A stretch of DNA of 41,112 nt, from assembly GCA_043759015.1 (NCBI GenBank), contig JAYVMH010000257.1, forward strand, positions 1 through 41,112. Reading direction: 5' to 3'. The DNA is from Actinomycetota bacterium (GTDB taxonomy: Bacteria; Actinomycetota; Acidimicrobiia; Acidimicrobiales; Ilumatobacteraceae). The first letter of the stretch is position 1. Each line of letters opens with the position of its first letter. Positions 986-37,272 of the stretch are shown in pieces. The position numbers and the translations under genes were made by a program. The notes under the pieces were generated by a model that saw nothing but the letters and a program-made list of their open reading frames with translations, did not search any database and was not told the origin of the DNA.

Positions 986-986
986 C

Positions 987-1010: not shown

Positions 1011-1023
1011 CATGTCGCGAGGG

Positions 1024-12616: not shown

Positions 12617-13963
12617 GTGCGTGTCCATCCGTTCGTCGATGAGGGCCTCGGCCATTCGTCGTACCTGATCGACCTCGGCGACGGCACCGCCGCTGTCGTC
12701 GATCCGCCGCGCTTCCCGACGGCACACGAGCGCATGGCCCGATCCCTCGGATTGACGGTGGCGTGGACGCTCGACACCCACTCCCACGCCGACTACGTGA
12801 CCGGCAGCCCGGCGCTCGCCGCCCGGGCGGGGGCGGCGTTCGTCGCGCCGGCCGCGTCGCGCCTCGACTCGCGCCATCGCCCGGTACGTGATGGGGAGCA
12901 CGTCGGTCTGGCGGATGGGGTCGAGCTCGTGGCGGTGGCGACACCCGGCCACACGCCCGACCATCACGCGTACGTGCTGCTGGGGCACGGGGCACCGCTG
13001 GCACTGTTCTCCGGCGGGTCGCTGATGGTGGGTACCGTGGGCCGGACCGACCTGTGCGGCCCGGATCTCGCCGTGCCGCTGGCGCACGAGATGTTCGCCG
13101 GGCTGCGGCGTTTCGATGACCTTCCCGGGGATCTGCCGGTGTACCCGACCCACGGAGCCGGCTCGTTCTGCTCTGCGCCGGGCGCGTCGCGGCGGACGTC
13201 GACGTTGGCCCGTGAGCGGGCGACGAACCCGCTGTTCTCGATCCTCGACGAGGACCGCTTCGTCGAGCAGCTCGTCGCTGGTTTCGGCACGTTCCCGAGC
13301 TACTTCGCCCGCCTCCCGGAGCTGAACCGTCGGGGTCCGGCTCGCTACGACTCGATCCCACGATTGGCTGAGCTCGACCATGACCGCGTCGATCGCCACA
13401 TGAGCGGAGGGGGCGTGGTGGTCGATGCCCGGCCGATCGCCTCGTTCGCAGCCGCTCATGTACCGGGGTCGCTGTCCAATGCGTTGCGCCCGGTCTTCGC
13501 CAGTTGGCTCGGGTGGCTGGTCGAGGCCGATCGACCGCTCGCGTTCGTGCTGGACGAGGGCCAGGACCGAGACGAGCTGGTGCGTCAGTGTCTCGACGTC
13601 GGCCACGAGAACCTCGTCGGCGTGGTGGCTGGCGGCATCGACTCCTGGGGCGCCGCAGGTCGCCCGCTGAGCACCATCCCACTGGTCGACACCGCCGGCG
13701 TGGTCGGGCGGATCGTCGATGTCCGCCAGGCCAACGAGTACGCCTCCGGTCACCTCCCGGCGGCCGAGAACATCGAGCTCGGCGCCGTTCAGGGCGCAGG
13801 GTTGCCGGGCGGCCCGGTCACGGTGATGTGCGGCCACGGCGAGCGCGCCATGTCGGGGGCGAGCATCCTGGTGGCGAACGGGCACACCGAGGTGGTCGTC
13901 CTCGATGGCGGGCCCGAGTCCTGGTCAGCCGAGACCGGGCGGCCGCTGGCGACGGGACGATGA
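12617..13963 (+). CDS. MBL-fold hydrolase fused to two rhodanese domains (persulfide dioxygenase-sulfurtransferase type)
   Basis: GTG 12617 follows GAGGAGG. The protein contains GHSSYLIDLGDGTAAVVDP and the metal motif LDTHSHADYVTGS. Two rhodanese-like modules follow (VVVDARPIASFAAAHVPGS...; IVDVRQANEYASGHLPAAENI...VTVMCGHGERA). Confidence 0.9.
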   Translation: MRVHPFVDEGLGHSSYLIDLGDGTAAVVDPPRFPTAHERMARSLGLTVAWTLDTHSHADYVTGSPALAARAGAAFVAPAASRLDSRHRPVRDGEHVGLADGVELVAVATPGHTPDHHAYVLLGHGAPLALFSGGSLMVGTVGRTDLCGPDLAVPLAHEMFAGLRRFDDLPGDLPVYPTHGAGSFCSAPGASRRTSTLARERATNPLFSILDEDRFVEQLVAGFGTFPSYFARLPELNRRGPARYDSIPRLAELDHDRVDRHMSGGGVVVDARPIASFAAAHVPGSLSNALRPVFASWLGWLVEADRPLAFVLDEGQDRDELVRQCLDVGHENLVGVVAGGIDSWGAAGRPLSTIPLVDTAGVVGRIVDVRQANEYASGHLPAAENIELGAVQGAGLPGGPVTVMCGHGERAMSGASILVANGHTEVVVLDGGPESWSAETGRPLATGR

Positions 13964-16403: not shown

Positions 16404-17377
16404 GTGAACGTGAGTGCAGAACAGTCGGCGGTTCCGGCGACAGCAGGAGTGGTGATGGAGCCCGTCGGCTGCTGCCTGTGCGGGGGCCAGGATGGGGTGC
16501 CCGTCGGCGTGGGGGAGGACTTCGAGTATCGGACATCCGACCAGTCGTTCCTGGCCGTCCAGTGCCCCCGGTGCCGTCTGGTCTACCTCGACCCGCGTCC
16601 GGCCTTGTCCGAGCTCGGCCGCATCTATCCCGATAGCTACCACGCGTTCGCATTCGATGCGGCGCAGTTCGGGATCGTGCACCGCGTGAGGAGTCGACTC
16701 GAGGCTCGCCGCTTGCTCCGAGTCGGACGCGGGCTGCCCCATGACGCCTCCGCCTCGACGTCGGGTGCGGCGACGGCTTTCACCTGGACCTCCTCCGCCG
16801 TCACGGTCCGCCGGGCTGGCGGCTCCGAGGCGTCGATACCGACGACCGCGCCGTGGCTGCCGCTCGTCGCAAGGGGCTGGCGGTCGACCTCACGACGATC
16901 GAATGCGCCGAGATCGAGCCAGGGTCCGTCGACATGGCCCTGTGCATTCAGACCGTGGAGCACGTTGCCGATCCCGTCGTGCTGCTCCAGGCGATCGCCC
17001 GTGTGCTGCGTCCGGGGGGACGCCTCTACTTGATCACGGACTCGACCGACTCGCCCGACTTCGCACTGGCGAAGGGCCGCCATTGGGGCGGCTACCACTT
17101 CCCGCGGCACTGGAACCTGTTCAACAAGGGCTCGATGCGCTTGCTGGCCGAGCGAGGCGGACTTGAGATCGACGAGTTGGGCACCGCCACGAGCCCCGTG
17201 AACTGGACCTACAGCGTGCGCAACTGGTTGGACGATTGGGGCGCACCGCGTTGGATCGTCGATCGGTTCTCGTTGTCCGACGCGCCAGCGCTCGCCGTGT
17301 TCACAGTCCTCGACGGCGTGCTCACCGCTGCGGGTCGGGGCGCTCTGCTGCGCGTGGTCCTTCGGAGGCGGGTATGA
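16404..17377 (+). pseudogene. Zn-ribbon-containing class I SAM-dependent methyltransferase, interrupted by a frameshift near 16745-16750
   Basis: Frame 3 (GTG 16404 after GGGGAGG) encodes CCLCGG...CPRCRLVYLDPRP...RLEARRLLRVGRGLPHDA. Frame 2 continues directly after an in-frame TGA (16742-16744) with RLRLDVGCGDGFHLDLL...VLRPGGRLYLITD... to the stop at 17377. Restoring one C in the C-run at 16747-16748 gives ...GLPHDALRLDVGCGDG... Confidence 0.75.
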
Positions 17378-18693
17378 GTGCTGCACGTCCGCCGGTGGTG
17401 GTGATCGGCGGCGGCATCGCCGGTCTCGTCGCCGCTCACGAACTCACCAGGCACGGCGTGGACGCCGACGTCTACGAGGCGGGCTCCCGCCTGGCTGGCA
17501 TGGCCGCCAGCCACGTCGACGCGGACGGCTTCAGCTACGACGTCGGTGCACACTTCGTGACGAACAGGTTCGTGGCTGCGCTCGGCATGCCCGGTCCGTT
17601 CCACGTGTTGCCCCGCTATGGCGAGGTGGTGCACCTGAGTGCACGGCGCCACCCGCACTATCCGGTCGGGCTACTCGGCGTACCCCGCTACGTCACGAGC
17701 GCGCTGGCTGAGCGGGTGCGTCGGCCTGATCGGGATCTGCGGGTGGCGGCGGATCGGTTCCGTCACGACTACGGCGCGGCGCTCGCCGAGGAGGTCGCCC
17801 TGCCGTTGTTGGAAGCGTGGTCCGGTCTGCCGGCAGAGCAGCTCTCGGCCAGCGTGATCGACAAGATCCCGACGGGGCTGGCTCAGACGATCTGGCTGCG
17901 GGCGGCGCAGCGCCTGACCCGTCGCGCAGTCATGATTGGCTATTGCAAGGAGGAGCCGTCCGCCACGGGCGTCCACCACGTGTCACCAGCTGCAGGCGTC
18001 GGCGCCATCTGCGACCACGTCGCCAGCCAGCTGCCCCGGAGGGTCCAGGTCGACCAGCCCGCTCAAGCGGTCTATGTCGACGATGGTCGGGTCGTCGGTG
18101 CGCGGGTGAACGGGCGCGACATCGATACCGACACGGTCATCTCGACGCTGCCGGTGCATCGGCTGCCGGACCTCGTGCAGGGCAGCGATCGGCTGGAGCG
18201 TTTCGGCCGGTTCCGGTTCCGCGGTCTCGTGCTGGTGAACCTCAAGCTCCTCGGTCGTGATCTGTTGCCCGACGTCGTGGTGTGGACGCCACACGGGTTC
18301 CCGTACTTCCGGGTCACCGAGACACCGCTGTCGATGCCGTGGACCGCTCCAGAGGGCAAGACCATGATCCTGTGCGAGCTCGGTGCCCAACCCGGCGACG
18401 ACGTGTGGAACCTCTCCGATGACGACCTCGTCGATCGATGCGTGACGACGATTGGCCCCCTGGTCGGAGATATCAGTTCCCGAGTGATCGGTGCCAGAGT
18501 ACTGCGCCAGCCGCTCGGCTACCCCGTGTTCGCCCTGGACTACGAGGACGACCGTGCCGACCTCGCCGCGAACGGTACGGGTGTGGCGGGCCTGTACAGC
18601 ATCGGACGGAACGGCGAGTTCGATCACATTCTGATGGAAGACACGTTCTGGCGCGTACGGCGGTTGATCCCGCGCATCCTCAGTGACCGATAG
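17374..18693 (+). CDS. NAD(P)/FAD-dependent oxidoreductase (amine-oxidase/HemY-like fold)
   Basis: ATG 17374 overlaps the methyltransferase stop (ATGA). The protein starts MSAARPPVVVIGGGIAGLVAAHELTRHGVDADVYEAGSRLAGM (GxGxxG plus an acidic residue at the strand end). The C-terminal motif is GLYSIGRNGEFDHILMED. Confidence 0.88.
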   Translation: MSAARPPVVVIGGGIAGLVAAHELTRHGVDADVYEAGSRLAGMAASHVDADGFSYDVGAHFVTNRFVAALGMPGPFHVLPRYGEVVHLSARRHPHYPVGLLGVPRYVTSALAERVRRPDRDLRVAADRFRHDYGAALAEEVALPLLEAWSGLPAEQLSASVIDKIPTGLAQTIWLRAAQRLTRRAVMIGYCKEEPSATGVHHVSPAAGVGAICDHVASQLPRRVQVDQPAQAVYVDDGRVVGARVNGRDIDTDTVISTLPVHRLPDLVQGSDRLERFGRFRFRGLVLVNLKLLGRDLLPDVVVWTPHGFPYFRVTETPLSMPWTAPEGKTMILCELGAQPGDDVWNLSDDDLVDRCVTTIGPLVGDISSRVIGARVLRQPLGYPVFALDYEDDRADLAANGTGVAGLYSIGRNGEFDHILMEDTFWRVRRLIPRILSDR

Positions 18694-18696
18694 ACG

Positions 18697-18726
18697 TTGG
18701 TCGTGTACGACATGGTGTAGTAGAAT
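18697..18726 (+). promoter_or_regulatory. sigma-70-like promoter (TTGGTC-18 nt-TAGAAT) with an embedded BlaI/MecI-type dyad
   Basis: TTGGTC lies at 18697-18702 and TAGAAT at 18721-18726. The dyad TACGACA-TGG-TGTAGTA at 18706-18722 fills the spacer. Confidence 0.5.
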
Positions 18727-18752
18727 GAGCGACCGATGTCCTGGAGGCAGCC

Positions 18753-18884
18753 ATGCTCAAGCTGACTAGGTATGGCGTGCTTCTCGGTCTGCTCGGTGTG
18801 GCGCTCTACCTCCTCGTCGGTGCGGCGCTCGGTAGCGATGGCCGATTTCCGTCGTGGGCACGACGCGGCGCAGCTCGGAGGTAG
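18753..18884 (+). CDS. 43-aa single-TM small ORF (hypothetical)
   Basis: ATG 18753 lies 5 nt after GGAGG (18743-18747). It encodes MLKLTRYGVLLGLLGVALYLLVGAALGSDGRFPSWARRGAARR with a TAG at 18882-18884. It is below the size cut-off of the ORF track, and its 3' end overlaps the ATPase remnant. Confidence 0.35.
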   Translation: MLKLTRYGVLLGLLGVALYLLVGAALGSDGRFPSWARRGAARR

Positions 18885-19140
18885 TGGGCGAACGGTCCCG
18901 ATTGGAGTCCGCGGCGCGGGCCAGTGCGGGAGCGTTGACGCCGAGGTCGGCGCCGACCTCGGCTGCCACCTCACGGCCTTCGACGCCGCGGTTCGGCCAC
19001 GGCGCCCACGATGGTGGTGGGGGTACCGGTCTTGTCGAACAGGACGGCGTCCACGCTGCGCATCCGTTCCAGGGCCAGCCGGTCCTTCACCAGGATGCCG
19101 TCAGCACCGGGCCGCGAGCCCGGCTGCCCGAGGCCTGGGC
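18860..19140 (-). pseudogene. remnant of a heavy-metal (CopA-like) P-type ATPase with large internal deletions and frameshifts
   Basis: The minus strand encodes ...GLGQPGSRPGADGILVKDRLALERMRSVDAVLFDKTGT (phosphorylation-site DKTGT) in one frame. Within about 25 codons, in another frame, it encodes EVAAEVGADLGVNAPALARA (hinge GDGVNDAPAL-like). About 190 residues normally separate these two motifs. Confidence 0.6.
18940..18963. repeat. perfect 24-bp loop-less palindrome inside the ATPase remnant
   Basis: gccgaggtcggc|gccgacctcggc is its own reverse complement over all 24 nt. Confidence 0.9.
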
Positions 19141-19200
19141 TAGATTTCGCGTCACCGCTGTCTTCGGCCCGTACCCGATCACTGGCCGGTCGGAACGGGG

Positions 19201-20073
19201 TCAGTGCGGGCAGAGGGCGGCGGCGAGACGCTCGAGGTGGTGGAGCTGGAACGCCGCGAACCCGGTGGCGATCAGGAGCGACATCCACAATGCCGCGGTG
19301 AGCGTGCGGTGCGTGGGCGTCGGCGCTGGCCCGATGAGGGCCTCGACCCGGCCGATCACACCCAACCCGGTGAACCCGGCCGCGACGACAGGCGTGTGAC
19401 CGAACAGCGCGACCTTGCCGAGCGTGTCGGCGACCAGGCGGCGATCGCCGCAGGCTCGTACGGCGCTCTCGTCGGCCCACCGCTCCAGCGAGTAGCGGAC
19501 GCGGCGGGTGAGCCATCGGAGCGGGGGCAGGATGGCGCCGGCGAGCTCGGCAACGAGCAGGTAGCGGTCGTGGCGGTGGCGGGCGTGGGCGCGCTCGTGC
19601 GCCAGCACGACGTCGGTCTCGCGCTCATCGAGGAGGTCGACGAGACCCTGGGAGATGATGATGCGGCCGCCCCGTCCAGGCCTCGTGATGGCGAACGGGC
19701 GCTCGTCGGTGCTCACTTCGACTGGGCCGGGAAGGTCGGCGCGAAGCTGATGGTGCTCACCGAGAAGTCCCCTGGCCCGCCAGGAGCCGTGAGCCAACAG
19801 GACGATGGCGGGAACACCTACCCAGGCGGGCACAGTGCCGTGGAGCCCGAACGCCTGGGCACACCAGCGGAGCCCGAAGCCGAGCAGGGGCAAGTGGGCG
19901 AGGAAGCCGAGCGCCACGAGCCCGAGCGTGGGGAGGGCGGCCACACCGATCAGCACGAGGCTCGCGGTCACGTACCGGGCGGCGACGGGTGGGGGCAGGC
20001 GCCGGTGTGCCGTCGAGCTGGCGACGGTGATGGCGACGGCCACCGCCAACGGGTACAGCAGCGCGGCGCCCAT
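19201..20073 (-). CDS. M56-family (BlaR1-like) membrane zinc metalloprotease without a penicillin-binding sensor domain
   Basis: 290 aa with 4 N-terminal TM segments and the HExxH motif VVLAHERAHARHRHD. A C-terminal TM is followed by the tail FQLHHLERLAAALCPH. The ATG shares one base with the BlaI-like stop (TGATG). Confidence 0.88.
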   Translation of the reverse strand: MGAALLYPLAVAVAITVASSTAHRRLPPPVAARYVTASLVLIGVAALPTLGLVALGFLAHLPLLGFGLRWCAQAFGLHGTVPAWVGVPAIVLLAHGSWRARGLLGEHHQLRADLPGPVEVSTDERPFAITRPGRGGRIIISQGLVDLLDERETDVVLAHERAHARHRHDRYLLVAELAGAILPPLRWLTRRVRYSLERWADESAVRACGDRRLVADTLGKVALFGHTPVVAAGFTGLGVIGRVEALIGPAPTPTHRTLTAALWMSLLIATGFAAFQLHHLERLAAALCPH

Positions 20074-20432
20074 CAGGTGCCGTCGCTGTCGAGGAGGCGT
20101 CGGAGCAGGCGGGCGTCGCGCTTGGAGAGCCCGTCGACGAACCGCACGAGGACCTTGCTGCGATCGCTGGCATCGGCGAGGACGGCGTCGATCCGCTGGG
20201 CGGCCAGCTCGGACTCGTCGAGCACGGCACGGTAGGCGAACGCCCGACCGACGGGCTCGCGCTCCACCAGGCCCTTGCCGTGGAGACGGGTGAGGATGGT
20301 GGCGACCGTGGTGTAGGCCAAGGGCTGCGGTAGCCGATCGTTGACCTCGGCGGGCTGGAACGGTCGATCGGCACGCCACAGCACCTCGAGGATGTCGTGC
20401 TCCAAAGCACCATCTGGTCGACGGGTCATCAC
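20073..20432 (-). CDS. BlaI/MecI/CopY-family winged-helix transcriptional repressor
   Basis: 119 aa: LEHDILEVLWRADRPFQPAEVNDRLPQPLAYTTVATILTRLHGKGLVEREPVGRAFAYRAV. This is the Penicillinase_R-type pattern. There is no C-terminal CxC metal motif. Confidence 0.92.
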   Translation of the reverse strand: MMTRRPDGALEHDILEVLWRADRPFQPAEVNDRLPQPLAYTTVATILTRLHGKGLVEREPVGRAFAYRAVLDESELAAQRIDAVLADASDRSKVLVRFVDGLSKRDARLLRRLLDSDGT

Positions 20433-20484
20433 TCTCGTACCTGTTGTGAGCCCGCTGCGGGGCCGCCGCGCAACACCACTATAC

Positions 20485-20501
20485 TGCTACATCGTGTAGT
20501 T
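20485..20501. promoter_or_regulatory. BlaI/MecI-type operator dyad in the blaI-like/copCD divergent region
   Basis: TGCTACA-TCG-TGTAGTT has a perfectly palindromic CTACA-N3-TGTAG core. It is directly preceded by TATACT (20480-20485). Confidence 0.55.
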
Positions 20502-20541
20502 GGCCGTTCGAGCGGAACGGCGTCGCTCTGACCCCGCCATC

Positions 20542-21945
20542 ATGCTCGCGCCCCCCGCCCACCGTCTCCTTCGTTGCCTCATCGCGCTGCTCCTCGTCTC
20601 GGTCGGGACGCTCGTGGCCCCTCGGGCCGCGTCGGCCCACAACACGTTCGTGTCGAGCGAGCCGTCCGATGGTGCCAGCTTGTCGAGCGCACCAGCGCAG
20701 ATCTCCATGATCTTCGGATCGGCTGTGCCGCTCGACACCGCCACGGTGCAGGCGATCGACGCCACCGGGGCACGGACCGAAGCGGCGGCCTTGGCTCACG
20801 GGCCGGCGGGGGAGACCGAGGTGGTCGCCCAGCTCTCCTCCGCCCTGGCGGCCGGAGACGTCACCGTGCGGTGGCGACTTGTCGGTCCCGACGGCCATCC
20901 GCTCACCGGGCGCATCGCCTTCACCGTCGCCGCGCCCATTGCGTCCACCGCGAGGGTGACGGTCGGCGCGGCGACGACCTCCACACCGACCACCAGTGGT
21001 GCACCTCCGCCCGCGGTCACCTCGCCCGGCGACGGTGGTGGCGCCGCCGGCGAGTCCTCCGTACCGTCCCTGGTCCGGTGGCTGCTGCGGTACGTCTCGT
21101 ACCTGGCCATCATGACGCTGGTGGGCATCGTGCTCACCGGCGCGCTGATCTGGCCGGGCATCGCCGAGCTCCCCATGCTCCGACGCGTGCAAACCCGTGC
21201 CCTCGCCACCGTCGCCGGGACGGCCGTTCTCCAGCTCATCGTGCTCGCATCCGACATCTCCGGCGATGCCCCGTGGGCATCCCTCGACGCACTCGACCGC
21301 GCCGGCCAGACCCCGGCCGGCACCGCGCTGCTACTGCGCGCCCTCGTGCTCGTGCCCTGCGCCGCGGTCCTGCTCCACCGCCGCGAACCCGGCCCACCCG
21401 ACATCCGCTGGAGCCTGCTGGGGCTCACCGGCATGGGCCTCCTGGCCACCTGGTCGTTCGCCGGCCACTCCGCCTCCCAACGCTGGCCGCAGCTGGGCGT
21501 CCCGCTCGACGTCGTCCATCACGCGGCCGCTGCGCTGTGGATCGGCGCCCTCGCCATCGTCGGCTTCGGCGCACTCCGCCGCCTACCCCACGACGACCTC
21601 GCCACCGTCGTGCCCGCCCTTGGGCGCCGTGCTGCCACCGCAGTCACCGCCATCGTGCTCACCGGTATCGTGCAATCGGTCCGCCTCGTCGGCTACCCGA
21701 CCGACGTACTCCGCGGAGCGCACGGTCGGCTGCTCGTGGGCAAAGTCGTCGGGCTCGCCGCGATGCTCGTCATCGCCAACGCCAACCGCCGACGCGTCGC
21801 CCTCACCTTCGGCCGTTCGGGTCGCGATCGCCCCGTCACGATCGAACACCTCCGGCGGGCGATGGTCGTCGAGTTCGGGTTGGGCCTCGTGGTGATCGCC
21901 CTCACCGCCGCCATGGTCGTGTCGCCGCCAGCGACGTCGCTGTAG
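20542..21945 (+). CDS. copper-resistance CopC-CopD fusion protein
   Basis: The signal peptide is MLAPPAHRLLRCLIALLLVSVGTLVAPRAASA. The CopC domain starts HNTFVSSEPSDGASL...VTVRWRLVGPDGHPLTGRIAFTV, followed by a Pro/Thr/Gly linker and about 8 TM segments of CopD type. The TTG 20500 start in the track would begin inside the operator. Confidence 0.88.
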   Translation: MLAPPAHRLLRCLIALLLVSVGTLVAPRAASAHNTFVSSEPSDGASLSSAPAQISMIFGSAVPLDTATVQAIDATGARTEAAALAHGPAGETEVVAQLSSALAAGDVTVRWRLVGPDGHPLTGRIAFTVAAPIASTARVTVGAATTSTPTTSGAPPPAVTSPGDGGGAAGESSVPSLVRWLLRYVSYLAIMTLVGIVLTGALIWPGIAELPMLRRVQTRALATVAGTAVLQLIVLASDISGDAPWASLDALDRAGQTPAGTALLLRALVLVPCAAVLLHRREPGPPDIRWSLLGLTGMGLLATWSFAGHSASQRWPQLGVPLDVVHHAAAALWIGALAIVGFGALRRLPHDDLATVVPALGRRAATAVTAIVLTGIVQSVRLVGYPTDVLRGAHGRLLVGKVVGLAAMLVIANANRRRVALTFGRSGRDRPVTIEHLRRAMVVEFGLGLVVIALTAAMVVSPPATSL

Positions 21946-21979
21946 GAGTCCTGCGCGACCCCACGCCATGAGCAGCGGC

Positions 21980-21996
21980 TACTACACTGTGTAGAA
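21980..21996. promoter_or_regulatory. BlaI/MecI-type operator dyad upstream of the DUF305 gene
   Basis: TACTACA-CTG-TGTAGAA has a perfect CTACA-N3-TGTAG core. It overlaps a TAGAAA hexamer and ends 23 nt upstream of ATG 22020. Confidence 0.5.
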
Positions 21997-22019
21997 AGCC
22001 CTCGGAACGGAGCATCACC

Positions 22020-22631
22020 ATGCGACAGATGCGCGCATCACTGATCATTGCCAGCCTGGGCCTGGCGCTCGGCGCCTGCGGGAGCAGCGGCGGATCCTCG
22101 GCCGGCTCATCGTCGGTCACCACCACCGTTGTCGCGTCCACGGCGTCGACGATGACCGACCCTGCCGTCGACGACGCCGATGTCGAGTTCGCGCAAGGCA
22201 TGATCGCCCACCACGAGCAGGCGATCGAGATGTCCGAGCTGGCCCTCGATCCGAAGGCGGCCGCAGGCACGGCAGTGAAGAACCTCGCCACCCGAATCAA
22301 GGCGGCCCAGGACCCCGAGATCCAGCAGATGACGGCGTGGCTCAAGGCCCACAACAAGACGGTCGAGATGGCGATGGACGACAGCCACAACATGGCGTCG
22401 ATGCCCGGCATGATGAGCGCGGGCGACATGGACGGTCTTGCCACCAAGACTGGCGGCGGCTTCGACGCAGCCTGGCTGACCATGATGATCGCTCACCACA
22501 CCGGCGCCATCGAGATGTCAACCACCGTCAAGGCCAAGGGCGCCGACGGCGAGCTTCGTGCCCTCGCCGAGAACATCATCACTGCCCAGCAGGCCGAGAT
22601 CGCCCAGATGAAGGGCATCATCGCCGGATAG
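22020..22631 (+). CDS. DUF305-domain lipoprotein
   Basis: The lipobox signal is MRQMRASLIIASLGLALGAC. The DUF305 signature appears twice: DVEFAQGMIAHHEQAIEMS and FDAAWLTMMIAHHTGAIEMS. Confidence 0.9.
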   Translation: MRQMRASLIIASLGLALGACGSSGGSSAGSSSVTTTVVASTASTMTDPAVDDADVEFAQGMIAHHEQAIEMSELALDPKAAAGTAVKNLATRIKAAQDPEIQQMTAWLKAHNKTVEMAMDDSHNMASMPGMMSAGDMDGLATKTGGGFDAAWLTMMIAHHTGAIEMSTTVKAKGADGELRALAENIITAQQAEIAQMKGIIAG

Positions 22632-22639
22632 ATGCTGCT

Positions 22640-22676
22640 GGCGTCAGGCCGAGAACCGCTGGTTCGGCCCGACGCC
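22640..22676. terminator. long imperfect hairpin between convergent genes
   Basis: ggcgtcaggccgagaacc-gct-ggttcggcccgacgcc forms about 15 bp with a 2-nt bulge and one mismatch. It lies between the DUF305 stop (22631) and the SHOCT-gene stop (22703). Confidence 0.5.
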
Positions 22677-22702
22677 GGCGTTTGCAGCCATGGCGGGGCG
22701 CC

Positions 22703-22996
22703 TCAACCGGATCGACCTTGACGCAGTGCCTCGAGCCGCTGCCGGTAGTCCTCGAGGTCGATATCGCCACGGGCGAGCCGCTCGGCGAGCACGTCCTGTG
22801 GGTTCGGAGGCGGAGGCGTTGCTACCGGCGTGGGTGTGGTGGCGCCGGCGTGGGACGGGGCCACCTGAGCGGTACGACGTATGAGGCTGATGCCCACCCA
22901 GATCACGCCGCCCCAGAACAGGACCATGAAGGCGGCCATGGCGATCCACCCCCACGAGCCTCCGCCCCATCCATCGTGCATGTATCCGTTGTGCAT
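22703..22996 (-). CDS. SHOCT-domain membrane protein
   Basis: 97 aa with a His/Met/Trp/Gly-rich N-terminus (MHNGYMHDGWGGGSWGW), one TM and a Pro-rich linker. The C-terminal SHOCT-like helix pair is QDVLAERLARGDIDLEDYRQRLEAL. GGAGG sits 7 nt upstream of the ATG. Confidence 0.8.
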   Translation of the reverse strand: MHNGYMHDGWGGGSWGWIAMAAFMVLFWGGVIWVGISLIRRTAQVAPSHAGATTPTPVATPPPPNPQDVLAERLARGDIDLEDYRQRLEALRQGRSG

Positions 22997-23081
22997 GGTG
23001 CACCTCCGTGTTGCCTTGTAGAACCCACGGTACAGGCGCGCGTTCCCGATGGACCGGTGGGCGGCGCGAACTCCGGATCGG

Positions 23082-23102
23082 CTTCACCGAGTCTTCACAC
23101 CG
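23082..23102. promoter_or_regulatory. 11-bp-phased direct repeat (candidate OmpR-family response-regulator site)
   Basis: CTTCACcgagtCTTCACaccg has hexamers at 23082 and 23093. On the other strand it reads TGAAGActcggTGAAGc. It lies in the SHOCT/MCO divergent region, about 80-95 nt upstream of the MCO ATG. Confidence 0.4.
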
Positions 23103-23178
23103 TCTCCACACCCGGTCGCCATGGTGGTGGCTGACGGACGCCGGTCATGGCGCGCCGGCGGTCATGGTTGGAGGAACG

Positions 23179-24717
23179 ATGCGGAGCTGGTCACGACGAG
23201 AACTGCTGCTGACGGGCGCCGGCGCGTTGGTGCTCGCTGCGTGCAGGAACACGCCGGCTCCGGTCGGCGGTGCTGCCGTCGGCTCTCTTGATCCGTCGGT
23301 CGATCGCCGTGATGCGTTGCGCCGGGCCGCCGGTGCCAGGACGGTGACGGCCACGGTGCGAGCGGAACCGGTCACCACCACGATCGGTGGACGCGAGGTG
23401 GCTACGTGGGCGTTCGGTGAGCGGCCGGGTCAGGGCGGCATCCGGGCCAGCGCCGGCGATCTGCTCGAAGCGACGTTCGTCAACGACCTCACGGCCGCCA
23501 ACACCGTCCACTGGCACGGCATCGCGCTGCGCAACGACATGGACGGCGTCCACGATCTCACCCAGTCGGTGGTCGAGCCTGGGGGCCGGTTCGCGTACCG
23601 GTTCACCGTTCCGGACCCGGGTACGTACTGGTTCCACCCGCACATGGGTCTCGAGCTCGACCGCGGCCTGTACGCGCCGTTGATCGTGGAGGATCGGCGC
23701 GAGCCGCTCGCCTACGACGTGGATGCCACCCTGATGCTCGATGACTGGCTCGACGGGTACGGCCGCACGCAGGACGAGGTGCTCCAGTCGCTCCAGCAGT
23801 ACGGGGGGCACTCCGGGATGATGGGTGGTACCGACGCGTCCACGGGAGGCATGGGCGGCATGTCTGGTCACGGTGGCATGGGGAGCGGGTCGGCGTCGTC
23901 GGGCATGGGCTCCAACATGGGCGGCCTGTCCGGTGATGTCGCCTACCCGCTGCACCTGATCAACGGGCGAGCGCCGATGGAGCGTGACGTGGTGAGGTGC
24001 GCTCCGGGTCAACGCGTGCGTCTGCGCCTCATCAACGCAGGGTCCGACACGGCGTATCGCATCGCGGTGTCCGGCCATCGGCTGACCGTGACCCACGCCG
24101 ACGGGTTCGCAGTGAACCCGGTCGAGGTCGACAACGTCGAGCTGGGCATGGGCGAGCGCTACGACGTGATCGTCACGACCCAGTCGGGCGCGTTCGCCAT
24201 CGTGGCCCGTCCGATCGGGAAGTCCGATCCGGCCGCCGAGGCCCTGCTCGTCACCAGCGACGCGTCGACCGCGCCTGCGGTGGGAACGCTCCCGACCGAG
24301 CTCACCGGCCGCACGCTCGCGTACACCGACCTCACCGCGACCGACGCGGTGCGCCTGCCGACGAAGACTCCGGACCGGACCGAGACGATCACGTTGACGG
24401 CGGGCACGAACGGCTACACCCACGGCATCGACGGCAGGAGCTACCCGAACGCCACGCCGATCACGGTCCGCGAGGGCGAGCGCCTGCGCCTGCAGATCGT
24501 GAACGCCACGATGATGTTCCACCCGATCCACCTGCACGGCCACACGTTCGCGCTCGTGGGCGCGGGCAGCGCCCGCAAGGACACGGTGAACGTGCTGCCG
24601 ATGTCCACGGTGGCCGTCGATGTGCAGGCCGACAACCCGGGCCAGTGGATGCTCCACTGCCACAACACGTACCACTTGGAGACCGGCATGGCGACGGTGC
24701 TCTCGTACCGGGCCTGA
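23179..24717 (+). CDS. multicopper oxidase (CopA/CueO/MmcO-like), Tat signal plus lipobox
   Basis: ATG 23179 follows GGAGGA. The protein starts MRSWSRRELLLTGAGALVLAAC (twin-Arg plus LAAC). Copper ligand motifs are TVHWHGI, WFHPHMG, HPIHLHGH and HCHNTYHLETGM. It also has a Met/Gly/His-rich insert. Confidence 0.92.
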   Translation: MRSWSRRELLLTGAGALVLAACRNTPAPVGGAAVGSLDPSVDRRDALRRAAGARTVTATVRAEPVTTTIGGREVATWAFGERPGQGGIRASAGDLLEATFVNDLTAANTVHWHGIALRNDMDGVHDLTQSVVEPGGRFAYRFTVPDPGTYWFHPHMGLELDRGLYAPLIVEDRREPLAYDVDATLMLDDWLDGYGRTQDEVLQSLQQYGGHSGMMGGTDASTGGMGGMSGHGGMGSGSASSGMGSNMGGLSGDVAYPLHLINGRAPMERDVVRCAPGQRVRLRLINAGSDTAYRIAVSGHRLTVTHADGFAVNPVEVDNVELGMGERYDVIVTTQSGAFAIVARPIGKSDPAAEALLVTSDASTAPAVGTLPTELTGRTLAYTDLTATDAVRLPTKTPDRTETITLTAGTNGYTHGIDGRSYPNATPITVREGERLRLQIVNATMMFHPIHLHGHTFALVGAGSARKDTVNVLPMSTVAVDVQADNPGQWMLHCHNTYHLETGMATVLSYRA

Positions 24718-24767
24718 CCGGGCCCGCTACCGTCGCGGCCATGGTCGATCGCACGGAGGTGAGCTGA

Positions 24768-25466
24768 GTGGCCGTGGTGCTCGTGGTGGACGACGAGCCC
24801 CGCATCCGTGAGCTCGTCCGGCGCTACCTCGAACACGAGGGCCACCAGGTGATCACCGCGGCCAGCGGGGCCGAGGCCCTGGACGTCGCCACCCACACCG
24901 ACGTCGACCTGGTCGTGCTCGACCTGCGTCTCCCCGACGTCCCCGGCGAGGAGGTCGCGCTGGAGTTGCGCCGGCGCTCCGACGTGCCGATCCTGATGCT
25001 CACCGCCAAGATCGACGAACGCGACCGCATCCATGGCCTCGAGGTCGGGGCCGACGACTACGTCACCAAGCCGTTCAGCCCGCGCGAGCTCGTGCTCCGC
25101 ATCGGCGCCATCCTGCGACGCGGCCGCGCCGACGCGCCCACGGCGGACGTACCCGTATCCTACGGGAACGGTTCGTTGAGCATCGACGAGCTCACCCGGC
25201 GCGTGCTGGCCCACGGCCACCCGGTGGAACTGACGCCGACCGAGTGGGGCATCCTCACCACGCTCGCCGCGCAACCGGGCCGGGTGTGCTCGCGCTATGA
25301 GCTCATCAACCGGGTTCGGGGCTACGAGTTCGACGGCTACGAACGCACCGTCGACTCGCATGTGAAGAACCTGCGCCGCAAGATCGAGACCGATCCCGCC
25401 AGTCCGACCCTCGTACAGACCGTGACCGGCATCGGCTACCGGCTCGGAGTCGACCGTGATCGCTGA
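24768..25466 (+). CDS. OmpR/PhoB-family response regulator
   Basis: GTG 24768 follows GGAGG. The receiver is VVLVVDDEPRIRELV...DLVVLDLRLPD...LTAK. The winged-helix output contains TPTEWGILTTLA...VDSHVKNLRRKIE...TVTGIGYRL. Confidence 0.95.
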   Translation: MAVVLVVDDEPRIRELVRRYLEHEGHQVITAASGAEALDVATHTDVDLVVLDLRLPDVPGEEVALELRRRSDVPILMLTAKIDERDRIHGLEVGADDYVTKPFSPRELVLRIGAILRRGRADAPTADVPVSYGNGSLSIDELTRRVLAHGHPVELTPTEWGILTTLAAQPGRVCSRYELINRVRGYEFDGYERTVDSHVKNLRRKIETDPASPTLVQTVTGIGYRLGVDRDR

Positions 25467-26835
25467 CCATCGCCCGATCGTTCGCAGCCCTCTCGCCCTC
25501 CGCCTCGTCGCCGCGTTCGTGGCCGTCGCCGTCGCCGCCGTGTTCGTGCTCGCCGGGCTGACCTTGTGGCGCACCCGGCACACCGTCGGCCGCCTGGCCG
25601 ACGAGCGTCAGCAGGCTACGGCCGACGCCATCGCCCAGACCCTCGCCCTCGGCTACCAGCAGGACGGCGGTTGGGACGGCACCGACCCGCACCCTGCCAT
25701 GATGGTCGCCGTCCAGGCGGGGGCCTCGCTGACCGTGCTCGACGCCCAGGGCAGCCCGCTCCTGCTGCGCAGCCGCATGGGCAACCTGCCGGTGATCGGC
25801 ACCGTGGTCGACGGCGTCGCCCGCCGGGCTCCTGTCGTCGCCGACGGTCGACCGGTCGGCACTGCCGTCGTCACCTTCACCCGGGGAGAGCTCGGGCAGG
25901 CCGAGCGGCACGTGCGGGATGCGCTCTCGGGCGCCGTGTTGATCGGTGCGGTGTCCGCTGCGCTCGTGGCACTCGCGGTCGCAGTCCCGCTGGCCGGCCG
26001 CGTCGTCCGCCCGCTGAGCCGCATGACCACCACCGCGCGGCGGCTCGGCGATGGCGATGCCAGCGCCCGCGTCGACGACCACGACGCGCCAGGCGAGCTC
26101 GGCACGCTGGCCCGCACGTTCGACGAGATGGCCGAGCGCCTGGAGGCCCACGAGACGACCCGCCGCAACGTCGCGGCCGACGTGGCCCACGAGCTCCGCA
26201 CACCGCTCACCTTGTTGCAGGGCAGCTGCGAGGAGGTCATCGACGGCATCGCCGCGCCCGACCTCGATCGGTTCGTGCAGCTCCACGACGACATCCTGCG
26301 ACTCCGCCGACTCGTCGACGATCTCGGAACGCTCGCCGACGCCGACGCCGCCGCCACAGAACCCCGGCTGCACCACGTCCGCTGCGACCTCGCCGCCGTC
26401 GCGGCGCAGGTCGCCGATTCGCTCGCGCCGCTCCTCGACGCGCACCAGCACACGCTGAACCGCCACCTCGAGTCGGTCGAGGTGCGCGGCGACCCCGCTC
26501 GACTGGCGCAGGTCGTCGCCAACCTGCTCACGAACGCCATCAAGTTCACCCCAGCCGGCGGCCGCATCGACCTCGACGTGCGACCCGTGACCGACGGCAC
26601 GAGAGCGCTCCTCACGGCGCGCGACAACGGACCCGGCATCGACCCCGCAGATCGCCCGCACGTCTTCGAGCGCTTCTACCGCGCCGGACCCACCCGCCAC
26701 ATCGCGGGCAGCGGCATCGGGCTCGCCGTCGTTCACCAGCTCGTCACCGCCCACGGCGGCACCATCACCATCGACGACGCGGCACCGGGCGCCACCTTCG
26801 TCGTGACCCTCCCCACGAACCCGCTCGGTGGATGA
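25456..26835 (+). CDS. sensor histidine kinase (two TM, HAMP, HisKA, HATPase_c)
   Basis: It overlaps the RR stop by 11 nt. The H-box is VAADVAHELRTPLT, the N-box LLTNAIKFTP, and the G-boxes are DNGPGI and GSGIGLAVV. Confidence 0.93.
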   Translation: MIADHRPIVRSPLALRLVAAFVAVAVAAVFVLAGLTLWRTRHTVGRLADERQQATADAIAQTLALGYQQDGGWDGTDPHPAMMVAVQAGASLTVLDAQGSPLLLRSRMGNLPVIGTVVDGVARRAPVVADGRPVGTAVVTFTRGELGQAERHVRDALSGAVLIGAVSAALVALAVAVPLAGRVVRPLSRMTTTARRLGDGDASARVDDHDAPGELGTLARTFDEMAERLEAHETTRRNVAADVAHELRTPLTLLQGSCEEVIDGIAAPDLDRFVQLHDDILRLRRLVDDLGTLADADAAATEPRLHHVRCDLAAVAAQVADSLAPLLDAHQHTLNRHLESVEVRGDPARLAQVVANLLTNAIKFTPAGGRIDLDVRPVTDGTRALLTARDNGPGIDPADRPHVFERFYRAGPTRHIAGSGIGLAVVHQLVTAHGGTITIDDAAPGATFVVTLPTNPLGG

Positions 26836-27359: not shown

Positions 27360-27956
27360 GTGTCGAATCGTTGGATGACGGTTGCGCGCGTCGCCGCCGG
27401 GTTGCTTGTCGCCAACGCGGTGAGTGCGTGTGGGCAGCGCGGTCGCTCGAGCGCAGCGCCTTCGAGCACCACGGCGGCAGCGGGTTCGTCGCTCACTACG
27501 CCGGACCCGATGGCAGGGATGAAGCTCGCGGCGGACGGCACGTGGTCTGTCGATGTCGACTTCTCTACCCCAGGACGCTGGCACCTGATCGCCGACGTCA
27601 CGCCGATGGTTCCTGGAGGCGCATCTGCCCGCGTCGCGCTCGGGGTCGACGTCGACGGCTACGACGTCACTCTGGACGGATCGCGGAGTGCAACCGCCGC
27701 GCAAACGCTGACCTTCACGGTCAGCCATGCTGGTCAGCCGGCGACTGGCATCACCGGGTACCTCGGTGCAGGTGGTCACCTCGTCGCGCTCCAAGAGCAG
27801 ACCCTTGGCTTCACCTACCTCCACCCCGAGGATGGTCCTAGGCCCGAGCCGTCGTTCACCGCCCGAGCCCCGCAGGCCGGGCGACATCGACTCTTCCTGC
27901 AGTTCGCAACGGGCGAGACGGTGCACACCGCCGCGTTCACGGTCGACGTCGCATGA
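27360..27956 (+). CDS. secreted lipoprotein of unknown function
   Basis: GTG 27360 lies 7 nt after AGGAG (alternative ATG 27375). The signal plus lipobox is RWMTVARVAAGLLVANAVSAC. The mature part contains GRWHLIADVTPM and GAGGHLVALQEQTLGFTYLHPEDG...RHRLFLQFATGETVHTAAFTV. Confidence 0.7.
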   Translation: MSNRWMTVARVAAGLLVANAVSACGQRGRSSAAPSSTTAAAGSSLTTPDPMAGMKLAADGTWSVDVDFSTPGRWHLIADVTPMVPGGASARVALGVDVDGYDVTLDGSRSATAAQTLTFTVSHAGQPATGITGYLGAGGHLVALQEQTLGFTYLHPEDGPRPEPSFTARAPQAGRHRLFLQFATGETVHTAAFTVDVA

Positions 27957-30823: not shown

Positions 30824-30886
30824 GCACCGTGGAACTGCCCCTCGTGAACCACCACGGCCACCTCGACCTGGTCCGCTGAGACGACG

Positions 30887-36456: not shown

Positions 36457-36462
36457 CTGTGA

Positions 36463-36915: not shown

Positions 36916-36917
36916 TA

Positions 36918-37150: not shown

Positions 37151-37272
37151 AGGCGGCCCGACGCTTGTTCTTGGATGCCTCCGACTCCGTTGGACGAGGA
37201 ATCCCGCGTCGGGCCGACACCGGTCGCCTCGACCTCGGATGAACCTGGATCAGCGGCCAGTGGGCCGGTCCA

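Follow-up and report, generated by a model that had tools for sequence, protein, structure and literature searches.

Organization of the locus

The analyzed stretch of DNA (41,112 nucleotides, hereafter the window) contains a putative repressor–protease gene pair, a divergent copCD gene, several further genes related to copper, and three inverted repeats, denoted dyads (a), (b), and (c), as follows.

18706–18722, no strand assigned: operator-like dyad (a), TACGACA-TGG-TGTAGTA (sequence and pattern scans)
18753–18884, plus strand: 43-aa ORF; GGAGG ribosome-binding site; single hydrophobic helix (ORF list)
18766–19130, minus strand: degraded P-type ATPase fragments (LVKDRLALERMRSVDAVLFDKTGT; GVNAPALA), downstream of the protease gene (ORF translations)
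19201–20073, minus strand: membrane zinc protease, 290 aa, similar to PetP and to sensor-less BlaR (Pfam M48, AF2 model, Foldseek)
19204–19248, minus strand: C-terminal tail of the protease, Q276-x-H278-H279...C288-P-H290 (conserved columns)
19585–19599, minus strand: HERAH (HExxH) motif of the protease (sequence)
19825–19899, minus strand: TM2–TM3 loop of the protease, W70-C71...H78 (conserved columns)
20073–20429, minus strand: BlaI/MecI/CopY-family winged-helix repressor (Penicillinase_R, 84 bits)
20485–20501, no strand assigned: operator dyad (b), TGCTACA-TCG-TGTAGTT, divergent repressor/copCD region
20542–21945, plus strand: copCD fusion gene, 467 aa (Pfam CopC and CopD, NCBIfam CopC/CopD; start from the L082 gene call)
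21980–21996, no strand assigned: operator dyad (c), TACTACA-CTG-TGTAGAA (sequence and scans)
22020–22631, plus strand: DUF305/CopM-family lipoprotein, Met/His-rich (Pfam DUF305, 154 bits)
22703–22996, minus strand: SHOCT membrane protein (Pfam)
23008–24717, plus strand: multicopper oxidase ORF (Pfam)
24768–25466, plus strand: OmpR-type regulator (Pfam)
25456–26835, plus strand: histidine kinase (Pfam)

The stop codon of the repressor gene overlaps the start codon of the protease gene (TGATG). The repressor has 118 residues from the ATG start adopted here and 119 from a GTG at 20432, leaving a gap to copCD of 112 nt (20430–20541) or 109 nt, respectively. The mature CopCD protein is predicted to begin with His (ASA/HNTF), and the DUF305 protein also scores as a CopM family metallochaperone in NCBIfam (115.9 bits; cut-off, 90). 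The copper neighbors at 22703–26835 carry no dyad in the window, including the region upstream of the multicopper oxidase (22997–23178, up to two mismatches), whereas the SHOCT and oxidase genes are dyad-bearing in relatives. As the oxidase lies beside a two-component system and lacks a dyad, part of the copper response of this genome appears to be wired otherwise.

Operator dyads and their conservation

All three dyads read exactly as in the first-pass annotation made from the sequence. Dyads (b) and (c) contain the exact core CTACA-N3-TGTAG (at 20487 and 21982, respectively), and a pattern scan agreed that the 41 kb window holds no further exact copy. Dyad (a) holds a T-to-G variant of this core (at 18708), with a left arm of CGACA, and hence is not an exact match; furthermore, a fourth copy with one mismatch (28939–28951) is located within the NlpC/P60 domain region of the gene at 27953–29146. 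With these two qualifications, the first-pass observation is confirmed. With up to one mismatch allowed, CTACANNNTGTAG gave four matches in the window (0.11 expected; none of 100 shuffles reached four), and the degenerate form ACKACA-N3-TGTMGT gave the identical four (0.26 expected). Dyad (a) had been placed between TTGGTC and TAGAAT; both hexamers are present (−35-like, 18697–18702; −10-like, 18721–18726), but the latter overlaps the dyad by 2 nt. Dyad (b) is adjoined by the −10-like boxes TATACT (plus strand, 20480–20485) and TATAGT (minus strand), and the right arm of dyad (c), which ends 23 nt 5′ of the DUF305 ATG (22020), overlaps a −10-like TAGAAA. Since a strict sigma-70 scan of 18500–23200 found no promoter, these −35/−10 assignments are based on the −10-like hexamers only.

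In a comparative set composed of 80 related loci and the window (806 kb in total), the exact dyad occurs 40 times, versus ~0.14 predicted from base composition, and 33 of these copies lie within 260 nt upstream of genes for the repressor, CopCD, DUF305/CopM, SHOCT, or membrane thioredoxin-like proteins. Other copies precede multicopper oxidase genes in the related loci, and none of the 40 is inside a homology-defined gene. The degenerate 15-mer ACKACA-N3-TGTMGT occurs 31 times in 20 loci, versus 0.02 in shuffles. The position and flanks of the dyad are also kept for each target gene in these loci: at the equivalent of site (b), at least 10 loci have a near-identical TATA(G/C)T-CTACATCGTGTAG-TTG between the orthologous genes, and at least 15 loci retain TACTACA-N3-TGTAGTAG...GAAAGG...ATG ahead of DUF305, consistent with the conservation at copCD and DUF305 that the first-pass annotation had suggested looking for. 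Based on this conservation, we read the dyads as operators, and their predicted link to copCD and DUF305 is strongly supported. All targets identified by homology are copper-handling or thiol-redox genes; no β-lactamase or PBP gene with a dyad was found in the window or the 80 loci.

An unbiased metagenome scan was also performed with the 17-mer TACTACA-N3-TGTAGTA, and 120 stretches were taken from its matches. A BlaI-like gene is present in 12 of the 120, the majority of matches having no BlaI gene in the stretch. The dyad and BlaI genes co-occur across phyla; one of the 12 stretches, a locus with 36% GC, combines the site with genes for BlaI, an M56 protease, a DsbA-like protein, and DUF305.

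Site (a) has different surroundings. The 43-aa ORF downstream of it, which had been counted as a member of the regulon, is called as a gene on the 99%-identical contigs L081 and L084, and a database search found no homolog outside its own cluster; it is population-specific and may well not be a true gene, and its promoter is probably a relic in view of the missing homologs. In relatives, the TACGACA variant of dyad (a) also precedes genes for multicopper oxidase and DUF305 proteins, and the equivalent operator–promoter there serves a gene for a thioredoxin-like protein or a multicopper oxidase, making control of a real 43-aa gene doubtful. The window contains no thioredoxin-like gene. Intact ATPases in the same motif context as the degraded fragments adjoin the repressor–protease pair in five related loci (L004, L013, L017, L038, and L048). 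Site (a) is probably an operator–promoter orphaned by rearrangement.

Repressor and membrane protease

Assignment of the small protein to BlaI/MecI-type repressors was borne out by its Penicillinase_R score and by its best solved relative, Mycobacterium tuberculosis BlaI (PDB ID: 2G9W; E, 7e-20). Its alignment has no conserved Cys or His, the CopY CxC motif is absent as noted before, and the protein fails the CopY/TcrY model (30.6; cut-off, 122). Arg97–Phe98 aligns with the scissile Asn–Phe of MecI, with Arg in place of Asn.

The partner is, as first described, a 290-aa HExxH membrane protease, for which four membrane helices are predicted and which lacks a penicillin-binding domain; its placement in the M56 family does not hold, however, because it passes the Pfam threshold for M48 (41.5 bits; threshold, 20.3) and fails that for M56 (16.8; threshold, 31). 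The AF2 model (pLDDT, 85.6) shows four long helices and a cytoplasmic HExxH domain, and the loop Arg counts agree with the positive-inside rule. In the Foldseek search, the model matched an M48 protease (3c37) and S. aureus BlaR1 (8exp and 8exr), the BlaR1 TM-scores being low (0.34–0.39). The protease had been called sensor-less, which is correct as to the PBP domain, but the outside is not featureless: Trp70, Cys71, Gln276, His278, His279, and Cys288 are invariant in 45 homologs, and the conserved Cys/His residues of the loop and tail are predicted to be on the outer face. An HH-x(5-14)-C motif is present in 99 of 127 full-length representatives (clustering at ≤50%). Copper genes share the locus with 24 of the 30 homologs bearing the tail motif, and 27 of the 30 have a dyad, compared with 9 and 5 of 39, respectively, for homologs without the motif; the co-occurrence of motif and copper genes is confounded by phylogeny (Acidimicrobiia versus Streptomyces). 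The HH-to-Cys spacing is 9–10 residues within one helix, so that chelation of a single ion needs a partner, e.g., a dimer or the loop.

Comparison with known systems

The first-pass annotation knew of no copper regulon under a BlaR1-type protease, but one has been described in Synechocystis sp. PCC 6803, namely PetR/PetP (Garcia-Canas et al., bioRxiv 10.1101/2020.07.31.226407; PNAS 2021). PetR degradation needs PetP and copper, the PetR operator is GACA-N3-TGTC, and PetP has a four-helix, sensor-less layout with TM4 at 256–278 (bioRxiv 10.1101/2020.07.31.226407). As compared by published description, the window repressor is, like PetR, a BlaI/CopY-family protein without the CopY cysteines; the protease, like PetP, is encoded by a downstream overlapping gene, has ~290 residues, four membrane helices with TM4 starting at residue 256, and no penicillin-binding domain; and both systems have an xACA-N3-TGTx inverted repeat. 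Both M48 and M56 are matched by PetP and also by the window protease, which passes the Pfam threshold for M48 only. The TM2–TM3 loop, proposed as the metal-sensing element of PetP, is also a candidate here, although the candidate ligands differ: two Met in the PetP loop, and a W-C...H loop without Met together with a Q-x-HH...C tail in the window protease. The systems further differ in phylum (Cyanobacteria versus Actinomycetota) and regulon, since PetR controls petE, petJ, and slr0601/2 only, not copM, and additionally activates one promoter, whereas the window targets are copCD and DUF305/CopM.

M. tuberculosis BlaI/BlaR (Rv1846c/Rv1845c) likewise has an actinobacterial BlaI-family repressor, and its BlaR lacks an extracellular sensor domain according to a passage of PMC5473688 citing Sala 2009; however, the reported BlaI regulon comprises blaC, ATP synthase genes, sigC, and others, not copper genes (PMC8265638, PMC5473688), and a review of M. 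tuberculosis metal regulators describes no copper role for the pair (PMC10961391). S. aureus BlaI/BlaR1 and MecI/MecR1 share the repressor–protease operon, the winged-helix repressor, and, as we infer for the window, the logic of proteolytic derepression. The arms CTACA/TGTAG are those of the mecA operator (PMC1935004), supporting the resemblance to mec, bla, and cop operators proposed earlier except for the spacer, which is N3 instead of N2 (PMC1935004, PMC7253601). BlaR1 also has a cytoplasmic HExxH...E gluzincin domain between membrane helices, and its TM2–TM3 loop couples the sensor to helix α-3 and the protease (PMC9834060). Unlike BlaR1/MecR1, the window protease has no penicillin-binding sensor domain and is below the Pfam M56 threshold, and the targets are copper genes instead of β-lactamase or PBP2a. 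CopY/CopR of Firmicutes share the repressor family, the TACA/TGTA inverted repeat, and copper-gene control; CopY, however, binds Cu(I)/Zn(II) by C-terminal CxC motifs and has no partner protease and an N2 cop box (PMC7253601, PMC11672702), whereas conserved Cys residues are lacking in the window repressor, which does not reach the CopY/TcrY cut-off.

Proposed switch and alternative readings

On balance, we favor the view that the repressor–protease unit is what corresponds to PetR/PetP in an actinobacterium (Acidimicrobiia, Ilumatobacteraceae-like). Very probably, in light of the comparative data that strongly support this step, a repressor dimer binds TAC(T/G)ACA-N3-TGT(A/C)GTA operators over −10 or start regions and would control three transcription units: the repressor–protease operon and the divergent copCD (one shared site), and DUF305/CopM. 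In relatives, this operator is also found ahead of genes for multicopper oxidase, membrane-anchored thioredoxin-like, and SHOCT membrane proteins. Homology with the BlaI/BlaR1, M. tuberculosis BlaI/BlaR, and PetR/PetP pairs makes it likely that the co-translated four-helix membrane zinc protease, when activated, cuts the repressor near the conserved Arg97–Phe98, derepressing the regulon. More tentatively, the activating signal may be copper on the external side of the membrane, read through conserved Cys/His residues of the TM2–TM3 loop (Trp70–Cys71...His78) and the 15-residue C-terminal tail (Q-x-H-H-x8-C-P-H); this tail is located where BlaR1 has its penicillin-binding sensor domain. Since every regulon product is an extracytoplasmic protein of copper handling or thiol redox, we read the unit as a regulon for copper stress in the envelope. 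The sign of its response to copper, presumably induction, is tentative, given that CopCD and TlpA-like proteins have a further part in acquiring copper and assembling cuproenzymes. Altogether, the original interpretation is supported in the repressor, the protease, and the dyad–copCD/DUF305 link, but not in the M56 assignment, the 43-aa ORF, or the novelty. A copper-triggered switch of this kind has to date been shown in cyanobacteria only; new relative to PetR/PetP are the phylum, the copper-homeostasis regulon, and the different candidate sensor motif.

It is unlikely that the protease of the same switch senses envelope thiol-redox or disulfide stress instead of copper, e.g., through Cys71/Cys288 oxidation or the state of a Dsb/TlpA pathway, with copper genes co-regulated as both stresses coincide. 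Two cysteines are indeed among the conserved outer-face residues, and TlpA/Redoxin-type membrane thioredoxin, DsbA-like, and CcdA-like proteins belong to the regulons of relatives; yet copCD and DUF305/CopM form the conserved core of targets, often with a multicopper oxidase, the invariant HH fits a metal ligand better than a redox switch, and PetP, the sole characterized sensor-less relative, requires copper (bioRxiv 10.1101/2020.07.31.226407).

Still less probable is a regulon for copper acquisition and cuproenzyme assembly, derepressed at copper scarcity, in which CopCD would be an importer, TlpA-like proteins would serve CuA sites, and either the protease would work in the absence of copper or the repressor would be under a different control. 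TlpA-like thioredoxins are involved in CuA maturation, which, like a presumably autoregulated repressor–protease operon, is compatible with such a role. CopCD/YcnJ-type proteins are also discussed as copper importers in passages of PMC8689200 and PMC13344008, but DUF305/CopM and multicopper oxidases are copper-excess proteins, Synechocystis copM is copper-induced (bioRxiv 10.1101/2020.07.31.226407), and degradation in PetRP is triggered by copper. Moreover, the neighborhoods resemble resistance islands in that they contain P-type ATPases and, in the case of Rhodococcus plasmids, a CsoR-like regulator.

A response of the pair to β-lactams or cell-wall damage, with copper genes as passengers of a general envelope-stress regulon, is very improbable: the closest solved relative of the repressor and the likewise sensor-less mycobacterial BlaR (in the passage of PMC5473688 mentioned above) would suit it, but the dyad is absent from β-lactamase and PBP genes in the window and 80 loci, and the homology-identified targets all point to copper or thiol-redox functions. 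OmpR-type regulators recognize direct rather than inverted repeats. It is hardly credible that the dyads are chance palindromes or sites of an unrelated factor such as the neighboring OmpR-type regulator, for although repressor binding is a prediction, one near-match lies in coding DNA (28939–28951), and most metagenome 17-mer matches lack a BlaI gene in the stretch, the dyad is enriched >100-fold over chance with promoter-specific placement, accompanies BlaI genes across phyla, and has the arms of the MecI-bound mecA operator (PMC1935004).

Repressor and membrane protease

The pairing of a BlaI-type repressor with a sensor-less protease of the membrane, and their link to copper genes, proved right in outline as proposed in the first-pass annotation. 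By the names of its closest homologs in databases, the window belongs to Acidimicrobiia, close to Ilumatobacteraceae. The locus contains the following features.

Features of the copper locus in the window (coordinates, strand, assignment)
18706-18722, dyad at site (a), TACGACA-TGG-TGTAGTA
19201-20073, minus strand, 290-aa membrane protease; Peptidase_M48 41.5 bits (cut-off 20.3), Peptidase_M56 16.8 bits (cut-off 31)
20073-20429, minus strand, BlaI-family repressor; Penicillinase_R, 84 bits
20485-20501, dyad at site (b), TGCTACA-TCG-TGTAGTT
20542-21945, plus strand, CopC-CopD fusion (copCD); Pfam and NCBIfam
21980-21996, dyad at site (c), TACTACA-CTG-TGTAGAA
22020-22631, plus strand, DUF305 protein, which also passes the NCBIfam CopM metallochaperone model
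22703-22996, minus strand, SHOCT membrane protein; Pfam
23008-24717, plus strand, multicopper oxidase; Pfam
24768-26835, plus strand, OmpR-type regulator and histidine kinase; Pfam

The Pfam search assigned the repressor to the BlaI/MecI/CopY family, with a match to Penicillinase_R (PF03965; 84.0 bits against a cut-off of 22.6) over residues 8-115; members of this family exceed the curated threshold of the model and combine a winged helix at the N terminus with a dimerisation domain at the C terminus. Profile matches include 2G9W and the MecI and BlaI structures, the best solved relative being Mycobacterium tuberculosis BlaI (2G9W; E, 7e-20). The protein contains no Cys, and none of its positions holds a conserved Cys or His among 28 homologs, in agreement with the earlier proposals that it lacks the CopY CxC metal motif and that the metal is not sensed by the repressor. 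A direct copper sensor of the CopY/TcrY type was rejected, because the CxC (CxCx4CxC) motif is absent and the score for the TIGR02698 model, 30.6 bits, is far below its cut-off of 121.95. BlaI/MecI repressors are characterized by a scissile Asn-Phe bond between the DNA-binding and dimerisation domains, which we take to be N101-F102 in MecI. Alignment of MecI (...LVLN|FVE...) with the repressor (...VLVR|FVD...) places at this position Phe98, conserved in at least 90% of the 28 homologs, preceded by Arg in place of the Asn of the family. The stop codon of the repressor gene overlaps the start codon of the protease gene (TGATG at 20071-20075).

The protease has the BlaR1-type scaffold of four membrane helices, TM3 and TM4 being separated by an HExxH...E gluzincin domain that is predicted to be cytoplasmic. 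Its AF2 model (pLDDT, 85.6) contains long helices at residues 2-25, 28-58, 83-110, and 256-287 and a short helix at 67-74; the HERAH motif occupies residues 159-163, and Glu197 is invariant in 45 homologs. In the consensus of the homologs, Arg is abundant in the loops that follow TM1 and TM3 and absent from the TM2-TM3 loop, so that by the positive-inside rule the catalytic domain is predicted to lie in the cytoplasm and the TM2-TM3 loop and C-terminal tail outside, an orientation like that of BlaR1 (PMC9834060). Pfam detected no penicillin-binding (SxxK) sensor domain in the protein, which ends ~14 residues past the last helix. The description as a sensor-less BlaR1-type protease thus holds for the HExxH motif and the missing penicillin-binding domain; it has to be amended in the Pfam family, which is M48 and not M56, and in that the protein is not featureless, having candidate sensor residues in the TM2-TM3 loop and tail.

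The M48 match (PF01435) passes its threshold over residues 128-176 only, and the M56 match (PF05569) remains below it. A profile search of PDB sequences returned M48 entries only, with 3c37 at the top. Foldseek also ranked the M48 peptidase 3c37 first, followed by Staphylococcus aureus BlaR1 (8exp, 8exq, and 8exr; probability 0.99-1.0 and TM-scores 0.34-0.39 for 8exp/8exr); the matches overall have probabilities near 1 and TM-scores of 0.3-0.39, too low for the fold comparison to decide between M48 and M56. Homologs of the protease are named "M56 family metallopeptidase" by NCBI. The protease of a low-GC metagenome contig (L186), a distant relative whose locus has the same operator, passes the M56 model at 59.5 bits, with a catalytic domain that aligns to the family of the window protease (hhalign probability, 94.7%).

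Conserved dyad upstream of copper genes

The three dyads are found at the positions and with the sequences first noted, site (a) being a one-mismatch copy of CTACANNNTGTAG, which is exact at sites (b) and (c) in a pattern scan of the window. With up to one mismatch, CTACANNNTGTAG has four matches in the window (G+C, 69.7%), where 0.11 would be expected; a count of four was not reached in any of 100 shuffles. The fourth copy, at 28939 within the NlpC/P60 domain region of the gene at 27953-29146, is taken as a chance match, and allowing two mismatches added weak matches only. All three sites share ACA-N3-TGTA, the TACA/TGTA inverted repeat of the BlaI/MecI/CopY family, and each adjoins or partly covers a hexamer of the form TAnnnT/A: TAGAAT at site (a), TATACT on the plus strand and TATAGT on the minus strand at site (b), and TAGAAA at site (c). 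A strict sigma-70 and terminator scan of 18500-23200 gave zero matches; statements on promoters are based on these -10-like hexamers and on conservation.

For comparison, 80 loci encoding relatives of the repressor were collected from one-genome-per-species contigs, amounting to 806 kb with the window. Exact CTACA-N3-TGTAG occurs 40 times in this set, against ~0.14 predicted from base composition. Thirty-three copies lie within 260 nt upstream of the repressor, copCD, DUF305, the SHOCT membrane protein, or a membrane-anchored thioredoxin-like gene (Redoxin, AhpC-TSA, or Thioredoxin matches), and none of the 40 falls inside a homology-defined target gene. Homology-defined genes were used for these placement counts because a longest-ORF coding mask over-called coding DNA and marked known intergenic sites as coding, and was dropped. 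More copies stand a few bases ahead of multicopper oxidase starts (for example in loci L001, L002, and L011). The genes linked to the dyad across the loci are accordingly copCD, DUF305, the multicopper oxidase, the thioredoxin-like and SHOCT genes, and the repressor-protease pair itself.

Each target has its own arrangement, and this layout is conserved. The divergent site between the repressor and copCD, TATA(G/C)T-N-CTACATCGTGTAG-TTG, is almost identical in at least 10 loci, where the dyad lies immediately downstream of the -10 box on the copCD side and immediately upstream of the one on the repressor side. The DUF305 site reads TACTACA-N3-TGTAGTAG, followed by GAAAGG and the ATG, and the thioredoxin site, TCTACA-N3-TGTAGTAGAAT followed by GTG, comes directly after the protease stop codon. 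Frequent variants are T-to-G and A-to-C, and the degenerate 15-mer ACKACA-N3-TGTMGT has 31 copies in 20 loci against 0.02 in shuffles. The chromosome of Aquihabitans sp. G128 (L038, 7913-8010) carries a perfect TACGACA-TGT-TGTCGTA upstream of DUF305; ~75 nt beyond it is a second site with a shorter spacer, TACGAC-AC-GTCGTA.

The conserved placement and co-occurrence indicate that the dyad is a conserved promoter element travelling with the repressor family, and its recurrence upstream of copCD and DUF305 in orthologous loci considerably strengthens the original dyad claim. These patterns strongly suggest that the dyad is the operator of the BlaI-family repressor, as predicted from sequence; the mechanistic steps beyond this assignment are those that we infer.

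An unbiased metagenome scan for TACTACA-N3-TGTAGTA returned at least 120 loci. Most of those listed are low-GC, with fetched stretches that contain no related gene, and the regulon is therefore not enlarged by the scan; a BlaI-like gene is present in 12 of the 120 stretches listed. One of them, L186 (36% G+C, 795-4467), contains, in this order, a BlaI gene, the M56-scoring protease with His and Cys in its tail, TACTACA-N3-TGTAGTA, and a DsbA-like gene, with DUF305 further on. This arrangement in a low-GC organism indicates that the module and operator extend beyond Actinomycetota.

Multicopper oxidase and site (a)

Four public contigs 99% identical to the window have the same gene arrangement, and the window contains no thioredoxin-like gene. 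The dyad is absent upstream of its multicopper oxidase gene, even with two mismatches allowed. In the region 23008-26835, this gene lies directly upstream of the OmpR-type regulator and HAMP histidine kinase genes, and in several relatives the dyad stands a few bases ahead of the oxidase start codon. Control of the oxidase appears, as judged from these sites, to have been rewired between lineages.

At site (a), the left arm TACGACA and right arm TGTAGTAG resemble the oxidase-type sites of relatives. The 43-aa ORF downstream had been placed in the regulon, which is doubtful: in a search of 5.8 billion proteins it matched its own cluster alone, and it overlaps a P-type ATPase remnant on the opposite strand. 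The ORF encodes a hydrophobic helix and is preceded by a good ribosome-binding site. It might still be a population-specific small membrane peptide. The remnant lies on the minus strand between the protease gene and site (a), as two out-of-frame fragments at 18766-19130 with the DKTGT (...LVKDRLALERMRSVDAVLFDKTGT...) and GxNAPALA (...GVNAPALA...) regions. Relatives have near the pair an intact ATPase with the LVKDRLALE...DKTGT context, by which the fragments are recognized as a decayed gene of the copper island. The most economical reading of site (a) is an operator-promoter orphaned by a rearrangement.

Comparison with known systems

The M. tuberculosis BlaI operator is TAC[GT]AC-N5-GT[AC]GTA. 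The mecA operator, CTACA-TT-TGTAG (PMC1935004), shares its arms with the window dyads, but its spacer is N2, as also in bla and cop operators, including the CopY boxes TACA-N2-TGTA (PMC7253601). The likeness to the staphylococcal and CopY operators originally pointed out therefore applies to the arms and not to the N3 spacer.

The closest described system is PetR/PetP, Slr0240/Slr0241 of Synechocystis. [quoted passage not shown] PetP, encoded by the overlapping downstream gene, is an M48/M56 protease that lacks a sensor domain and has its helices at 4-21, 28-50, 65-87, and 256-278, and the PetR operator has the core GAC-N5-GTC, extended to GACA-N3-TGTC (bioRxiv 10.1101/2020.07.31.226407). As far as PetP is known by its published description, the two systems are thus alike: in both, the gene of a BlaI-family repressor overlaps that of a four-helix, sensor-less M48/M56 protease lying downstream. 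They differ in the proposed copper ligands, two conserved Met residues in the TM2-TM3 loop of PetP (bioRxiv 10.1101/2020.07.31.226407; PNAS 2021), whereas the loop of the window protease has no Met, and in the regulon, petE/petJ (plastocyanin/cytochrome c6) in one and the copCD, DUF305, oxidase, thioredoxin-like, SHOCT, and pair genes in the other.

The assertion that no BlaR1-type copper system had been described is outdated by PetRP. According to a 2023 review, copper-homeostasis genes are outside the control of PetRP, and what BlaR homologs do in heterotrophs is an open question (PMC10141476). Copper sensing in actinobacteria is known from cytosolic repressors of the CsoR/RicR type, from two-component systems, and from SigC, and the copper regulators listed in a review of metal regulation in M. 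tuberculosis (CsoR, RicR, Rv0474, and SigC) include no BlaI-type system (PMC10961391). In the open-access literature, we found no paper on a BlaI/BlaR-type copper regulon in actinobacteria. A repressor-protease pair that responds to copper at the membrane and governs copCD, CopM, a multicopper oxidase, and thiol oxidoreductases would be a new class of regulator of envelope copper stress in actinobacteria. The PetRP mechanism, a switch specific to photosynthesis, would then be broadened to general copper homeostasis.

Candidate sensor residues

The TM2-TM3 loop of the protease (residues 59-83, AHLPLLGFGLRWCAQAFGLHGTVPA) contains an invariant Trp70-Cys71 pair and a His78 conserved in at least 90% of the 45 homologs, in which Gln276, His278, His279, and Cys288 of the tail are also invariant. 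A full-library profile search with the protease family yielded at least 417 clusters (50% identity) with E of 1e-30 or better. Among the best 150 matches, 127 proteins are full-length, 99 of which have the HH-x(5-14)-C tail motif and 83 the WC...H loop motif. Copper genes are nearby for 24 of 30 complete homologs with the tail motif in the 80 loci, against 9 of 39 without it, a comparison that is confounded by phylogeny.

It is conceivable, and we propose it tentatively, that a small extracytoplasmic sensor, copper-binding or based on copper-dependent thiols, is built from the Q-x-H-H-x8-C(-P-H) tail together with the W-C...H loop and replaces the penicillin-binding domain of BlaR1. Such a sensor would define a widespread subfamily of BlaR/PetP-type proteases comprising the clusters found in the search, which with the BlaI-type repressor would govern an envelope copper-stress regulon in Actinomycetota, and probably other phyla, alongside CsoR/RicR and CopRS. 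Mycobacterial BlaR is also devoid of a sensor domain, and its signal is unknown (PMC5473688); the residues described here are concrete candidate ligands by which BlaR proteases without a sensor domain, the M. tuberculosis one among them, might perceive their signal.

Plasmid islands and neighboring genes

A plasmid search with the protease sequence gave zero matches at E 1e-8, and one with the repressor retrieved distant actinobacterial plasmid loci (41-52% identity) without CTACA-N3-TGTAG. BlaI-M56 pairs occur in copper or metal islands on plasmids of cultured Rhodococcus, M. abscessus, and Pseudonocardia (L085, L086, and L087), cultivable systems in which the idea could be tested. In Rhodococcus erythropolis (L085; plasmid NZ_CP091856, 13387-27680), the order is a CsoR-like regulator, CopC(D), DUF305, an Ig-like protein, BlaI, and M56, then a two-component system and multicopper oxidase; in Pseudonocardia it is BlaI, M56, DsbA, and CcdA, adjoining metal ATPases. 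These pairs have neither the dyad nor the HH...C tail, indicating that their operator and sensor differ.

Elsewhere in the window, a methyltransferase gene at 16455-17377 (plus strand) is split over two frames, with the frame change near 16754-16781. It is a single intact 307-aa gene in one of the 99%-identical contigs (L081), and the split reflects a frameshift mutation or else an error of assembly. The regions 12617-13963 and 29435-31711 contain two rhodanese-domain genes, one with a metallo-beta-lactamase fold fusion, and a TauE/SafE sulfite exporter gene, which look like sulfide/persulfide handling genes; on M. abscessus plasmid pGD22-1 (L086), a TauE gene adjoins the BlaI-M56 pair. The window is overall rich in metal-transport genes, among them a P2-type cation ATPase (858 aa) and an Nramp transporter at 33880-38613, 11-16 kb downstream of the copper genes.
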